Positions 28,489 to 48,980 of a stretch of DNA of 61,258 nt are shown here, piece by piece (the stretch's first letter is position 1; every line of letters starts with the position of its first letter). Made by a program: the position numbers and the translations under genes. Below the pieces are notes generated by a model that was not told the origin of the DNA, did no database searches, and saw only the letters and a list, made by a program, of their open reading frames with translations. Where the stretch lies: contig JBFMFP010000001.1 of assembly GCA_040751885.1 (NCBI GenBank), positions 1 to 61,258 on the forward strand, in the 5' to 3' direction. This DNA comes from Nanobdellota archaeon (lineage in GTDB: Archaea > Nanobdellota > Nanobdellia > Woesearchaeales > GW2011-AR9).

Positions 28489-28836
28489 TTAATCTAAGCC
28501 CAAACTTACTTTTATTGCCAAATTGATTCTGCTTATTAAATGATTATCCAAAGAGCCAATTCTTTTTGTAATTCTCGATTTGTCAATGGTTCTTATTTGA
28601 TTTAATAAAATTGTTGAATCCATATTTAAGCCCGATTCTTTTTTTAGAATTGTAACATTGGTGGGAAATTCTTTGGTAAATATTTTTGAAGTGATAGGAG
28701 CAATTACCGTTGTAGGAGAATATTCATTCCCAAAATCATTTTGAAGAACAACCGCAGGCCTTGTTCTGCCCTGCTCACTGCCTATTACAGGGCCTAAATT
28801 TACTAAAATTATATCTCCTCTTTTTATTTTAATCAA
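28489..28836 (-). CDS. mazF: MazF/PemK-family endoribonuclease toxin
   Basis: IKRGDIILVNLGPVIGSEQGRTRPAVVLQND. Confidence 0.85.
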   Translation of the reverse strand: MIKIKRGDIILVNLGPVIGSEQGRTRPAVVLQNDFGNEYSPTTVIAPITSKIFTKEFPTNVTILKKESGLNMDSTILLNQIRTIDKSRITKRIGSLDNHLISRINLAIKVSLGLD

Positions 28837-28848
28837 TTTTAATCAATT

Positions 28849-29070
28849 TTAATCCCAGCTTTTATCTGCTGTTTCCCATTCTTTATTTACAGCCAATGTT
28901 TCAGAAGCCATTTCTTTATAGCCCTCAATTAAGAGCTTTTGTTCGCGTCTCTTTTGTTGCTCAGCAAATTTCATAAGATTTACAATAACTTCTTCGTATG
29001 TTTCTTTGTTAGTTTTTAACTTTTCAAGCTCACTCTTTACATCTTCTCCTATTTGAATTGTTGTTACCAT
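28849..29070 (-). CDS. Putative cognate antitoxin
   Basis: 73-aa ORF 12 nt upstream of mazF on the same strand. No motif recognised beyond its position. Confidence 0.5.
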   Translation of the reverse strand: MVTTIQIGEDVKSELEKLKTNKETYEEVIVNLMKFAEQQKRREQKLLIEGYKEMASETLAVNKEWETADKSWD

Positions 29071-29159
29071 CTGTACTATAGAATAACTATAGTTTATAAA
29101 TCTTCTTGTTTTTTAGATAGAACGAGGGCATTATTATAAAACATTAAGAATAAAAAAAC

Positions 29160-29421
29160 TGCCCCGGCCGGGAATTTCACAGATGTCACGCAAATGTCAC
29201 GCCATTTGACAGGCGGAGCCTACGCTTCGCTTCGGCACAGATGTCACGCCGTTGGAGAGGCGAGGGCATGCATCTGCTTTGAACCCGGGTCACTGCCTTT
29301 CCTTGGATTTCTCTCTCGAAAGGGCAGTATGATAGTTTATCCTCCGGTAAACCCCAGAGATATGGGATTTCACGCGGTTTGTCCCTGATTTAACAATCAG
29401 ACCGGACTACACCACCGGGGC
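29160..29421 (-). tRNA. tRNA-Glu(UUC) with three introns (D-loop, 37/38 and T-loop 59/60)
   Basis: Minus-strand read: GCCCCGG-TG-GTGTAGTCCGGTC[~65 nt]TATCAT-A-CTGCC-CTTTCG[18 nt]A-GGCAG-TGAC-CCGGG-TTCAAA[104 nt]T-CCCGG-CCGGGGC-A. Confidence 0.8.
29174..29277 (-). other. T-loop (59/60) intron, family 1, in tRNA-Glu
   Basis: The junctions form CCGGG/UUCA/AAG/CAGAUG...CAUCUG/UGAA/AUU/CCCGG, a canonical bulge-helix-bulge. The core is homologous to 44804-44917 and 33298-33427. Confidence 0.75.
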
Positions 29422-29499
29422 GTTATTATCCCTGAAAAAGGATTGGTTTAAAAAAGTTTCCACAAATCTTATAAAATTAGGGTATGAATTATAATAACT

Positions 29500-29856
29500 A
29501 TGGCTGAAAAAGTAATTCTTGGTCTGACTGAACCGGTGAAAATAAAAGGGCGTGAAGGAAGAAATGCAGATATTATCGCCAGAATAGATACCGGGGCAAC
29601 TTCTTCATCAATTGACATGCGGCTGGCTGAAGAGCTTGGGCTGAAACAAATACCGCGCTCAAAAGTTGTAAAATCAGCTTCCGGTGTTAAAAAAAGGTCG
29701 TTGGCGAGGGCAAGAATAATTATCAAGGGAATGGAGATAGAAGAAGAGTTTACTTTAGCTGACCGCAGCCAGATGACTTACAAGATGCTTATTGGCCAGA
29801 ATATCCTCAGAAAAGGAAGCGTCCTTATTGACCCCTCTCTTAATGTAATAAAATAA
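29500..29856 (+). CDS. Retropepsin-like aspartic protease (RimK-associated, DUF785-type)
   Basis: ARIDTGATSSSID motif, directly upstream of a rimK-like gene. Confidence 0.7.
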   Translation: MAEKVILGLTEPVKIKGREGRNADIIARIDTGATSSSIDMRLAEELGLKQIPRSKVVKSASGVKKRSLARARIIIKGMEIEEEFTLADRSQMTYKMLIGQNILRKGSVLIDPSLNVIK

Positions 29857-45983: not shown

Positions 45984-48980
45984 ATGAACGAAGAACAAAG
46001 CGAACAGCGGATTGGACCTCCAGCCGAATTAAAAAAAATTAATGATACTACCTGGGAGCTACCTGCTTCTTATAAGAAAGGCATGCGTGTTCCTGCGCGG
46101 ATTATTGCTACTGAAGAGCTAATTAAAGCTATGGATAATGGCGTGTTTAACCAGATCAGCAACGTAGCAACTCTTCCAGGCATTCAAAAGTATGCTTTCT
46201 GCATGCCCGACGGGCACTGGGGCTATGGGTTCCCAATAGGTGGAGTGGCGGCATTTGACCCGGAGGAGCAGGGGATAATCTCTCCGGGAGGAATAGGTTT
46301 TGACATAAATTGTTTAGTTAAAGGCTCAAAGATTTTAACGGATTTCGGTTATTTAAAACCCGTTGAAGATTTTGAAACGGAGTTTGTAGATGTTGATATC
46401 CCCTATTCTTTTTACTCTTTGAAATTACAAAAGTGTATGCAATCCCTTCTTTCTTTTGATACCAATAAAAAATCCTTCTCTTCTAAAAGCATAGGTTATT
46501 TTATGAAAAAAAAACAGGCTGGTTCAATTCTCCAAATTAAAAGCAATTTAGGATACGTTATTGAAGTCACTGAAGACCACCCTATCTTAACTAAAGAAGG
46601 AATGGTGGAAGCAGGGAGGTTATCTAAAAGCCAGGAAATTGCAATTTATCCTTACGAAGGAGTTTCCTACGAATGTTTAGATGAAGTTATGTTAGTTGAT
46701 GACCAAACCCTTTTTACAAAACAGGAAAAAGAGGAATTAGTGAAAAGGAATCTTTTTCCGTTGAGTATTAAAAATGAAAAACTACCCATATTAACAAAGC
46801 TGTTTGGTTACCTGCTCGGTGATGGTCAAATATATTTCTCCGGGAAGAAAGGGTTTGTTTGTGCTTATGGGGCAGAGGAGGATTTAAAAGAGATACAAAA
46901 AGACATAAATAAGTTGGGTTTTTCAGCAAATATTTATGGGCGTGAAAGAGAACATTCAATTCCAACAAAATATGGACTAGTCAGATTTTCTAACAAGAAC
47001 TTTGAATTGCATACTTCCTCAAAATCCTTGGTTAAGTTATTTTTTGCTTTAGGCTACCCAAATGGCGTAAAAACAAATGTTCCTTTTGTTGTTCCCGAGT
47101 GGATAATGAATTCACCATTATGGATTAAGCGGCTTTTTTTATCAGGATTGTTTGGGGCTGAGTTATCAAAGCCGAGAACCCATACTAAAACCGGGTTTGA
47201 CTGTCCAACCTTTTCCCAGAATAAGAACACCCTCCTCTTGGAAAATGCTAGGTATTATTGCATTCAAATCATGAAATTGCTTGAAGAATTTGGTGTTAAC
47301 ACCCATAAACTTCTTGTAAGAGATGATTATTCGAATCGCTACAGAAAAACTAGCCGGTTAAAGCTACAAATCTCTTCAGAAGAAGAAAATTTGTTAAAAT
47401 TGTGGAGTAAAATAGGGTTTAGTTACAATCAAAAAAGGGAATTATTATCGCATATTGGTATAATTTACATCAAAGAAAAAAAGATTCTAACACAAAAACG
47501 TAAAGAAGTTGCTCAGAAAATTGAAGAATACAGAAAGAAAGGATTGAAATTAACCGAAATTCAAAAGTTATTGCTGTCGCCAATTACTAATGAAAGGTTT
47601 ATTACAAGGCATTTTTATGAGCAAGCTGATTATAGGATTCATTTAGATTTTCTTTCATTTAATTCTTTTGTAAAGTTAAAAAAGGAGCAATACGATGAAT
47701 ACGGTTGTTTTTTTGATGCCGTAGAAGCAGTCACTAAGAAAGAATATGATGATTATGTTTATGATTTTAATATTCCAGAAACTCATAATTTCATTGCGGG
47801 AAATGTAATTGTTTCCAATTGCGGCATGCGCTTAATTACCACCAATTTAACGGTCAATGAAGTTAAGCCAAAGATAAAAGAACTGGTTGATGCTCTTTAT
47901 CAGCAGGTTCCCGCCGGGGTGGGCTGCAAGGGTTTTGTAAAACTGAGCAGGCAGGAGTTTAGGGAAGTGATGAAAGAAGGGGCGCAATGGTGCTTTAACT
48001 ACGGCTATGCTACGCAATCGGATATAGAGCATATAGAAAGCCGGGGCAAAATTCCCGGAGCTGACCCTTCCAAAGTTTCTGACAAGGCAGTTAAAAGAGG
48101 GTTTGACCAGCTGGGCACTTTGGGAAGCGGGAACCATTACTTAGAAATTCAGGAAGTCAAAAAAGAAAATATCTTCAATAGGGAATGGGCAAAAGTAATG
48201 GGCATAACTAAGTCCGGGCAGATAGTCATTATGGTCCATTGCGGCTCCCGGGGCTTTGGGCATCAGATAGGAACAGACTATTTACGGACATTTTTAGACG
48301 TGATGCCCAAGTATGGTATTGAGATTCTTGATAAAGAGCTTGCCTGTGCGCCATTTAATTCTGCAGAAGGGCAAGCGTATTATGCGGCCATGGCCTGTGC
48401 AGCAAACATGGCTTTTGCCAACAGGCAGGTGATACATCAGAGGATAAAAGAAGTGTTCAGCAAAGTATTTGCAAAGACAGCTGAAGAGATGGAAATAAAC
48501 CTTGTTTACGACGTAGCCCACAACATCGCCAAGCTGGAAAAGCACATTATTAACGGCAGGGAAAAAGAATTATTAGTGCACAGAAAAGGGGCCACCCGTG
48601 CCTTTGGTCCGAAAAGGGCAGCTGAGCTTCCTAAGAAATATGCTCAGATTGGGCAGCCGGTGATTTTAGGCGGAAGCATGGAAACTGGCTCGTATCTTTT
48701 GCTGGGAACAGATGGAGCTGATGACACTTTTGCCTCTACTGCCCATGGCGCAGGAAGGACGATGAGCCGGGCAGCAGCAAAGAGGACAGTAAGAGGGGAG
48801 CAGCTACAGAAAGAGATGGAAAAACAGGGGATATATGTGCATAGTGTAACCATGTCTGGATTAGCAGAAGAAGCCGGAAAAGCGTATAAAGATATTGAAG
48901 CGGTAGTGGATTCGTTGGAAATTGCAGGGATTACCAAAAGAGTTGTCGCTTTGAAGCCGATAGGGAATGTGAAAGGGTAA
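45984..48980 (+). CDS. rtcB: RtcB tRNA-splicing ligase interrupted by an intein
   Basis: The PGGIGFDIN / CGMRLITTN halves of the RtcB metal-binding motif are separated by 503 aa. The C-terminal RtcB blocks (GSRGFGHQ, HRKGATRA, STAHGAGR) are intact. Confidence 0.95.
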   Translation: MNEEQSEQRIGPPAELKKINDTTWELPASYKKGMRVPARIIATEELIKAMDNGVFNQISNVATLPGIQKYAFCMPDGHWGYGFPIGGVAAFDPEEQGIISPGGIGFDINCLVKGSKILTDFGYLKPVEDFETEFVDVDIPYSFYSLKLQKCMQSLLSFDTNKKSFSSKSIGYFMKKKQAGSILQIKSNLGYVIEVTEDHPILTKEGMVEAGRLSKSQEIAIYPYEGVSYECLDEVMLVDDQTLFTKQEKEELVKRNLFPLSIKNEKLPILTKLFGYLLGDGQIYFSGKKGFVCAYGAEEDLKEIQKDINKLGFSANIYGREREHSIPTKYGLVRFSNKNFELHTSSKSLVKLFFALGYPNGVKTNVPFVVPEWIMNSPLWIKRLFLSGLFGAELSKPRTHTKTGFDCPTFSQNKNTLLLENARYYCIQIMKLLEEFGVNTHKLLVRDDYSNRYRKTSRLKLQISSEEENLLKLWSKIGFSYNQKRELLSHIGIIYIKEKKILTQKRKEVAQKIEEYRKKGLKLTEIQKLLLSPITNERFITRHFYEQADYRIHLDFLSFNSFVKLKKEQYDEYGCFFDAVEAVTKKEYDDYVYDFNIPETHNFIAGNVIVSNCGMRLITTNLTVNEVKPKIKELVDALYQQVPAGVGCKGFVKLSRQEFREVMKEGAQWCFNYGYATQSDIEHIESRGKIPGADPSKVSDKAVKRGFDQLGTLGSGNHYLEIQEVKKENIFNREWAKVMGITKSGQIVIMVHCGSRGFGHQIGTDYLRTFLDVMPKYGIEILDKELACAPFNSAEGQAYYAAMACAANMAFANRQVIHQRIKEVFSKVFAKTAEEMEINLVYDVAHNIAKLEKHIINGREKELLVHRKGATRAFGPKRAAELPKKYAQIGQPVILGGSMETGSYLLLGTDGADDTFASTAHGAGRTMSRAAAKRTVRGEQLQKEMEKQGIYVHSVTMSGLAEEAGKAYKDIEAVVDSLEIAGITKRVVALKPIGNVKG
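46311..47819 (+). mobile_element. Intein with a LAGLIDADG homing-endonuclease domain (503 aa)
   Basis: Starts with Cys (CLVKGSKIL) and ends ...HNFIAGNVIVSN, followed by the extein +1 Cys. Two LAGLIDADG-like motifs (LFGYLLGDGQ, FLSGLFGAE). Confidence 0.9.

Follow-up and report, generated by a model that had tools for sequence, protein, structure and literature searches.

What is the make-up of a tRNA-Glu(UUC) gene whose D-loop, anticodon loop and T-loop are all interrupted, and does the repetition inside its T-loop intron record elements that inserted into one another in this very gene? The locus lies in a window of 61,258 nt (the whole stretch of DNA that was analysed), which is contig 1 of a draft assembly of 142 contigs, 1.42 Mb and 38.9% G+C with an estimated completeness of 94%. 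A sequence-only reading had placed a 262-nt gene at 29160-29421, with introns of about 65, 18 and 104 nt, and its coordinates, strand and sizes were found to be right. The parts of the gene are listed below; the TATA-like box and the T run were read from the sequence.

29447..29455, minus strand: TATA-like box TTTTTTAAA, ending 25 nt upstream of G1
29160..29421, minus strand: whole tRNA-Glu(UUC) gene, 262 nt, with four exons and three interrupted sites
29402..29421, minus strand: exon 1 (positions 1-19), with the acceptor 5' strand, the D-stem 5' strand and the start of the D-loop
29407-29404, minus strand: GUCC (15-17a) in exon 1, the 5' strand of the central helix of the D-loop BHB
29401-29337, minus strand: intron 1 (D-loop, after G19), 65 nt, consisting of units 1a and 1b
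29379..29401, minus strand: D-loop unit 1a, 23 nt, T-CTGATT-GTTA-AATCAG-GGAC-AA
29337..29378, minus strand: D-loop unit 1b, 42 nt, ACCGCG...GGAT-AA
29317..29336, minus strand: exon 2 (positions 20-37), with the D-loop end, the D-stem 3' strand, the anticodon stem 5' strand and the anticodon UUC
29299..29316, minus strand: intron 2 (37/38, the canonical position), 18 nt, AGAGAGAAATCCAAGGAA
29278..29298, minus strand: exon 3 (positions 38-59), with the anticodon stem 3' strand, the variable loop, the T-stem 5' strand and TTCAAA
29174..29277, minus strand: intron 3 (59/60, T-loop), 104 nt, with a two-unit array of the genome-wide family-1 repeat inside
29160..29173, minus strand: exon 4 (positions 60-73), with T60, the T-stem 3' strand, the acceptor 3' strand and the discriminator A
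29152..29158, minus strand: run of seven T, beginning one nt past the discriminator

The gene and its junctions in orthologues

Read on the minus strand from 29421 to 29160, the gene starts with GCCCCGGTGGTGTAGTCCGG and ends with TCCCGGCCGGGGCA, and no CCA is encoded at its 3' end. When the 65, 18 and 104 nt of the introns were deleted in silico, the 75-mer GCCCCGGTGGTGTAGTCCGGACTATCATACTGCCCTTTCGAGGCAGTGACCCGGGTTCAAATCCCGGCCGGGGCA was obtained, which ARAGORN recognizes as tRNA-Glu(ttc) with a complete cloverleaf and all four arms intact. On the unspliced window, ARAGORN reported 0 tRNA and Rfam reported 1, which is a different tRNA, so the tRNA-Glu gene is missed by both. A permissive Rfam scan (E <= 10, 28800-29800) returned nothing credible, with best scores of 15-17 bits that are far under the gathering scores. 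This includes C/D box sRNAs, such as the one encoded in the tRNA-Trp intron of Haloferax, for which no credible Rfam match was found in the same interval. The 5' exon of Glu(UUC) has a single copy in the whole assembly. All four exons are collinear on one strand within 262 nt, so the gene is neither split nor permuted.

The gene occupies a spacer of ~430 nt between a MazF-antitoxin pair on one side and a divergent protease-like/RimK-like pair on the other. The TATA-like box is likely the archaeal promoter of tRNA-Glu and the seven-T run is likely its terminator. Directly downstream, a MazF/PemK toxin (115 aa) and a VapB-like antitoxin (73 aa) are encoded at 28489-29070 of the window (minus strand). 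A plus-strand ORF of 64 aa (29194-29388), which lies inside the tRNA gene and has no Pfam match, was considered as a protein and rejected as spurious.

Forty related genomes were searched at the DNA level, which yielded orthologues of tRNA-Glu from ten other genera of the same family. For every exon junction, three or more of the ten have no interruption. The D-loop junction CCGG^ACTA (TCCGG^ACTATCAT; the caret marks the junction) is contiguous in genomes G004, G011, G012 and G014, and G018, G019 and G020 have an unbroken anticodon-loop junction, CTTTCG^AGGC; the equivalent anticodon-loop junction of G024, which has a different anticodon stem, is also uninterrupted. The T-loop junction TTCRAA^TCCCGG is uninterrupted in 8 of the 9 complete orthologues. 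Because the junctions are contiguous elsewhere, all three that were inferred for tRNA-Glu are directly seen in one orthologue or another. The mature sequences are nearly identical among the orthologues, and that of the present gene differs from G020 at two positions. Together with the in-silico splicing and the BHB folds described below, the uninterrupted junctions support a mature Glu product of ~75 nt, three interrupted sites, as claimed earlier, and splicing of the BHB type.

A D-loop intron is present in every orthologue. It is located after G19, with H formed by GUCC:GGAC, in the source genome and in G008, G010, G018, G019, G020 and G024; in G004, G011, G012 and G014 it is located after G15, and H is GUGU:RCAC, formed with the D-stem 5' strand. 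That a nearly identical mature sequence has two such sites suggests that the intron slid or was gained independently. The h' hairpins of the D-loop introns vary in sequence among the genera while their pairing and GGAC-AA are kept, which is the expected outcome of selection for the BHB. On the other hand, a 37/38 intron is found in five orthologues and a 59/60 intron in two, and the interiors of the latter are unrelated to intron 3 of the present gene. Family-1 is absent from the Glu orthologues of the relatives, and so tRNA-Glu would have gained it within the genus-level lineage.

Folds of the three interrupted sites

In the MFE fold of the D-arm with its insert, GUCC pairs with the proximal GGAC, the 3-nt bulge is GG^U and the hairpin CUGAUU/AAUCAG is stacked. 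This architecture of unit 1a is that of the 23-nt intron of the relatives, and the same design with covarying hairpin stems is found in six genera. Removal of unit 1a changes the MFE partner of GUCC to GGAU; the fold then has a 3-nt bulge, GG^A, and a hairpin of 8 bp. According to these models, the 65-nt insert is two tandem BHB units (23 + 42 nt) that have one common exon junction. The size of ~65 nt given earlier for the D-loop insert was correct, but its description as a single intron has to be replaced by two units. Since each unit has its own BHB 3' half, two successive excisions are predicted; removal of the whole 65 nt in one step corresponds to a fold 2.3 kcal/mol above the stepwise fold. 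A BHB-compatible fold, which had been proposed as a check at the D-loop junction, is thus predicted for both units, in the relaxed HBh' form. In each of them the 5' bulge, H and h' are strict and the 3' cut site lies in a loop of 4-6 nt without an outer helix; the modelled 3' junctions are of the relaxed HBh' motif and not the strict 3-nt bulge.

The sequence of unit 1b is imperfectly palindromic and closes with a further copy of the BHB 3' half (GGAU-AA). Its 34-nt palindrome is flanked by an 8-nt imperfect direct repeat, GGACAAAC and GGATAAAC, which could be read as a target duplication; the need to keep a 3' BHB half functional would leave an equal pattern. In a BLAST search against its own genome unit 1b had a self match only, and it was unmatched in the relatives searched for tRNA-Glu. 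Metagenome contigs gave no exact match to unit 1a (23 nt). We also note that unit 1b (29337-29378) contains GTGAAATCCC, which is like the 3' junction of the T-loop intron, GTGAAATTCCC (29165-29180), possibly by chance.

The 37/38 intron can adopt the canonical BHB register, with CUUU:AAGG, the bulges CG^a and aa^A, and a GAAA-capped h' mini-helix; the energy of this register is -6.8 kcal/mol vs -12.4 for the MFE fold. The 59/60 intron forms a strict hBHBh', in which H consists of TTCA (29283-29280) and TGAA (29179-29176) and the bulges are AA^g and at^T. Its h' helix pairs CAGATG (29276-29271) with CATCTG (29185-29180), and the pairing can be extended as CAGAUG(CAUGC):(GCGUG-A)CAUCUG. The BHB-competent fold has -43.4 kcal/mol vs -46.1 for the MFE, which differs only in that the 4-bp helix is unclosed. 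In a standard BHB the cut follows the second bulge nucleotide, and by analogy the tRNA-Glu junctions would be cleaved there.

Family-1 repeats inside and outside the 59/60 intron

The repetition in the 59/60 intron involves the following parts.

29236-29250, minus strand: internal copy of the repeat core, GGCGTGACATCTGTG, an exact 15-mer present once in the intron
29178-29192, minus strand: terminal copy of the repeat core, TGCGTGACATCTGTG, with 1 mismatch to GGCGTGACATCTGTG
29189-29203, minus strand: GGCGTGACATTTGCG, in the 59/60 intron
29178..29208, minus strand: second repeat unit, the hairpin CAAATG-GCGTGA-CATTTG plus an 11-nt duplicated tail CGTGACATCTG

It had been claimed that a 15-mer occurs twice in this intron. 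The repetition is real, but there is one exact copy of the 15-mer, and the sequence present twice is the 14-mer GCGTGACATCTGTG. With up to 2 mismatches, the repeat motif has 5 matches in the window vs 0.04 expected, and 0 of 100 shuffles reached 5. The ends of the intron are inverted copies of the repeat core, CAGATG(T)CA(C/T)GCC ... GGCGTGACATCTG, and so the intron has the terminal inverted repeats of the MITE class. The duplicated tail CGTGACATCTG supplies the 3' strand of h'. Only the two ends of the sequence, ~13 nt at the start (GCAGATGCATGCC, the core in inverted and degenerate form) and the final TGAAAT, are specific to the intron role. The internal copy was considered as an alternative splice site and rejected: TGCC stands after the copy, and GGCGTGACATCTGTG is followed by CC and not AAAT, so there is no TTCA:TGAA helix. 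With the 5' end of the intron paired to this copy, the energy is -40.7 kcal/mol, 2.7 kcal/mol above that of the productive fold.

BLAST of the 104-nt intron against its own genome gave ~25 loci, and the core motif has 53 matches. The family-1 unit has the form ...CGCCTCTCA-RRTG-GCGTGA-CAYYTG; the other modules are a linker hairpin CCGAAGCGTAGCGTAGGCTTCG and a module of ~100 nt, and 11-nt tail duplications (GCGTGACAYYT-GCGTGACATCTG) are frequent. Some of the arrays are outside tRNA genes, just upstream of the TTTATAAA boxes of protein genes. No match was found when Rfam was run on ten array loci. In the alignment, the Glu intron is collinear from nt 17 on with arrays on contigs C79, C112, C53, C82, C119 and C15. 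The order of the block is a unit, a linker hairpin and a unit with the 11-nt GCGTGACAYYT tail duplication. The array on C79 has the whole module order, including the tail duplication, and those on C112, C53, C82, C119 and C15 are slight variants; the tail duplication itself is also found on C15, C79, C82, C83 and C119.

The sequence-only reading took the internal copies as scars of nested insertion, that is, of family-1 elements that had inserted into, or recombined with, one another in the tRNA-Glu intron. The 14-nt direct repeat GCGTGACATCTGTG indeed brackets 44 nt in the manner of a long target duplication, and family-1 occurs in both orientations at many loci, which suggests that it is mobile or recombinogenic at the DNA level. 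However, the module order is common to the other loci described above, some of which are plainly intergenic. The arrangement is therefore a property of the family and not of tRNA-Glu, and an insertion event specific to this gene is unnecessary. Neither an intact Y1/IS200 transposase nor TnpB was found in the 94%-complete genome, and the sole trace of Y1 is a 59-aa C-terminal remnant of IS200 type at C90:9647-9739 (minus strand). No target-site duplication could be recognized at the T-loop, where the registers AAA and AAAT fail to rebuild the 7-nt T-loop. We regard nesting within this gene as improbable; judged by the alignments, the apparent nesting is a stereotyped array block of a genome-wide repeat family, and recombination or slippage within family-1 is a plausible builder of such arrays.

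Another explanation is that the assembler mis-joined or mis-counted the repeat. Copies of family-1 end at least nine contigs, which indicates that the assembler struggled with them, and the number of units in the 59/60 intron rests on one short-read-type assembly in which this repeat breaks many contigs. Nevertheless, the 104-nt block lies midway along a 61-kb contig, flanked left and right by unique sequence, and its units differ (CCAACG vs CAAATG; CATCTG vs CATTTG), which makes collapse or chimerism less likely, and we consider an artefact very unlikely. The least credible explanation is a decaying pseudogene full of insertions, with Glu decoded by another gene left unassembled in a 94%-complete draft of 142 contigs where many tRNA genes are at contig ends, since the four exons are intact, the cloverleaf is flawless with only two differences from G020, every insert lies in a BHB, a promoter-like box and a T run flank the gene, and most other tRNA genes of the genome are interrupted likewise. 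In our assessment, 29160-29421 is probably a single functional tRNA-Glu(UUC) gene of a Woesearchaeota-type DPANN archaeon, whose precursor would be spliced through BHB motifs as four units at three sites.

The interruption of other tRNA genes was evaluated at the genome level. With standard tools (ARAGORN; Rfam above cut-off), 5 tRNA genes are found. A strict screen for a T-arm and a complementary acceptor stem with an optional 59/60 insert, which is motif-based and an incomplete census, gave 28 candidate tRNA genes, 17 of which have a 59/60 intron with a TGAAAN-like end. Family-1 is found in seven complete tRNA genes (three forward, four reverse) and in three more cut at contig ends, and all its copies within tRNA genes are at 59/60. 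A second intron family (AGCCAGCAAT...) is found in four tRNA genes. The intron flanks are identical in Glu and three other tRNA genes: GACCCGGGTTCAAA precedes the intron, and in the three complete genes TCCCGG follows. The 59/60 intron has probably spread between genes, and with such identical flanks ectopic recombination is a plausible route.

Several loci have further features. At C121:24970-25234 (minus strand), the 15-nt 5' end of a tRNA, GCCCCTGTGGCTCAG, is present twice, ~107 nt apart, with a family-1 unit between the copies; by its sequence this gene looks like an insertion with a duplicated tRNA 5' end. At C110:31450-31758, a tRNA 59/60 intron has a Glu-like start, GCAGATGCATACCCTC, includes the ~100-nt module and reaches the contig end after more than 150 nt, so T-loop introns can be long enough to break the assembly. 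The region C34:24100-24400 and the array ends on C15 and C119 are MITE-like, with terminal inverted repeats of ~30 nt and a family-1 unit in the centre.

The family-1 hairpin was also searched for in other genomes of the family. Its pattern is present 30 times in the source genome; of 60 others, 13 have it, with 1-6 copies each, and the reversed pattern, used as a control, gave zero matches. In the hairpin CA-RR-TG/CA-YY-TG, the inner stem is Watson-Crick compensated in 57 of 58 copies from 14 genomes. Three stem variants exist (GA/TC, AA/TT and AG/CT), with the loop GRCGTGA kept; two of the double compensatory changes are clear, and the 58 copies are not independent. Such conservation is suggestive of an element that is structured or bound, as RNA or as ssDNA. 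In G015 the six copies examined all abut TTTGAAC, and in G010, G022 and G047 the hairpin likewise stands directly against TTTGAAC or GTTCGA, and so it would mark the edge of a T-loop intron in these genomes too. In G021 the hairpin is central in a repeated element of ~300 nt, and the element on C34 bounded by terminal inverted repeats is similar. The three copies in G021 are near-identical, and their end, CTTCACTT..CTGAAGTATTAC, resembles sequence adjacent to arrays in the source genome. As far as these comparisons reach, family-1 is an old T-loop intron family of the lineage that has expanded here and is also present in MITE-like DNA. A search of metagenomes with a degenerate 3'-junction pattern was discarded: at least 120 loci were hit by chance matches, none of those listed had an upstream hairpin, and the single locus passing the T-arm test among the matches listed is unlike a family-1 intron.

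Processing, known systems and the origin of the introns

Both EndA and RtcB, the machinery for BHB-type tRNA introns, are encoded in the genome. EndA (C70:12699-13478, minus strand) has 259 aa and matches PF01974 and PF02778; an N-terminal tail of ~85 aa, which is Lys/Glu-rich and of low complexity, is followed by one alpha unit. Proteins from MAGs labelled Candidatus Woesearchaeota or Nanoarchaeota share 60-88% identity with it. A tblastn search of the genome with the EndA core gave nothing below E = 2 as a second subunit. The protein was aligned with the alpha4 enzyme of M. jannaschii and the alpha subunit of N. equitans, and it has no insertion relative to M. jannaschii; no L3-type insertion was recognized in this comparison. 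The M. jannaschii enzyme is a strict alpha4 EndA. By the alignment, the EndA found looks like this strict type, although several of the junctions are relaxed. This single alpha unit was the one EndA found for a genome in which many junctions are non-canonical and some are relaxed. RtcB lies in the window at 46152-48977 (plus strand), as one frame of 1006 aa with a PF01139 match; the match is split into model residues 1-57 and 46-426 around ~1.46 kb, which would fit an intein. Contig C54 carries the gene for a CCA-adding enzyme.

Maturation may proceed as follows. A single precursor of ~262 nt would be transcribed from the gene's own TATA box, cleaved at the BHB motifs by EndA, ligated presumably by RtcB and completed by CCA addition. 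For the D-loop, the probable order is that the 23-mer is excised, the ends are ligated, the RNA refolds and the 42-mer is excised; alternatively, one cut via the distal half would remove all 65 nt at once. At 59/60, the inverted-repeat ends would form h' beside the TTCA:TGAA helix and the internal copy would have no splice role. The interior array would have been gained or put together as one block, like those at many other loci of the genome.

Several features of this gene have counterparts in known systems. Multi-intron tRNA genes are described in Thermoproteales and other Crenarchaeota (Sugahara et al. 2007, 2008; PMC4090602). Such genes are matured by EndA and RtcB and missed by standard finders; tRNA-Glu is likewise missed, and the same maturation is predicted for it. 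The differences are that the host here is a DPANN archaeon with one plain alpha-type EndA, whereas the Crenarchaeota systems have an (alpha-beta)2 enzyme, and that in tRNA-Glu one site has two tandem BHB units and one intron is an array of a dispersed repeat. The 2010 work on transposed introns of Thermoproteales, as represented in PMC4090602, found near-identical introns across the isoacceptors of one genome and left the mechanism unknown; near-identical introns in different isoacceptors imply a spread at the DNA level (PMC4090602). Family-1 is like that family in that similar introns are found in different tRNA genes of one genome. Unlike it, family-1 is at 59/60 alone, in both orientations and with inverted-repeat ends that form h', and it is also found in intergenic arrays and in elements bounded by terminal inverted repeats. 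The occupation of canonical as well as non-canonical positions, which marks the Thermoproteales type, is not seen in family-1.

In DPANN archaea, including a Woesearchaeota MAG, tRNA gene disruption was reported to be markedly increased, and prediction did not give complete tRNA sets there (Kaneta et al. 2018, PMC5829648). The disruption is linked in that work to an alpha4 EndA with an L3 insertion (PMC5829648). The 5 tRNAs given by standard tools fit the source genome to this DPANN pattern. The difference is that the EndA here has no L3 insertion that could be recognized vs M. jannaschii, and that no gene-level account of compound or repeat-filled introns, such as those of tRNA-Glu, was seen in that paper. 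Heavy interruption of tRNA genes has also been described for Asgard archaea (bioRxiv 10.64898/2026.10.13.758758). Both there and here most tRNA genes are interrupted, the introns are of BHB type, positions have gained introns repeatedly and many genes are missed by annotators. The Asgard survey found neither a route by which the introns arrive nor a connection with mobile elements, whereas the intron family here shares sequence with dispersed repeats outside tRNA genes.

A different comparison is with interspersed repeats of the REP/BIME and MITE kinds. These are short interspersed hairpins, located in intergenic regions as mosaic arrays with linker modules. Family-1 is like them in having covarying hairpins and linkers, with some copies in elements with ~30-nt terminal inverted repeats. 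It is unlike REP and MITE in that no intact RAYT/Y1 or other transposase was found in the genome and no target-site duplication is visible at the T-loop. To our knowledge, REP elements are not known as tRNA introns. In a narrow search of the literature, no report was found of nested or tandem BHB introns at one archaeal tRNA site, or of a tRNA intron made of a repeat that forms intergenic arrays. Multi-intron genes and shared intron families are already known, and the parts that appear new are the compound D-loop site and the repeat-array intron.

The finding bears on how archaeal tRNA introns arise, the mechanism of their transposition having been called unknown (PMC4090602). The locus offers one intron made of a repeat that also lives outside tRNA genes, in related genera as well, and an older D-loop intron that appears to have grown by an insertion carrying its own splice-site half. 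It also bears on the apparent lack of tRNAs in DPANN genomes, since standard finders report 5 where the split-aware screen gives 28 candidates. We tentatively propose, as a possibility well short of an even chance, that the family-1 hairpin is a mobile or recombinogenic DNA element whose ends provide a ready h' helix of the BHB, that it creates or colonises T-loop introns and has escaped into intergenic arrays, and that in the D-loop an insertion disrupts the splice site but also restores it by a duplication of the 3' BHB half, at the cost of obligatory two-step splicing. If true, this would be a concrete route for the gain and growth of archaeal tRNA introns.
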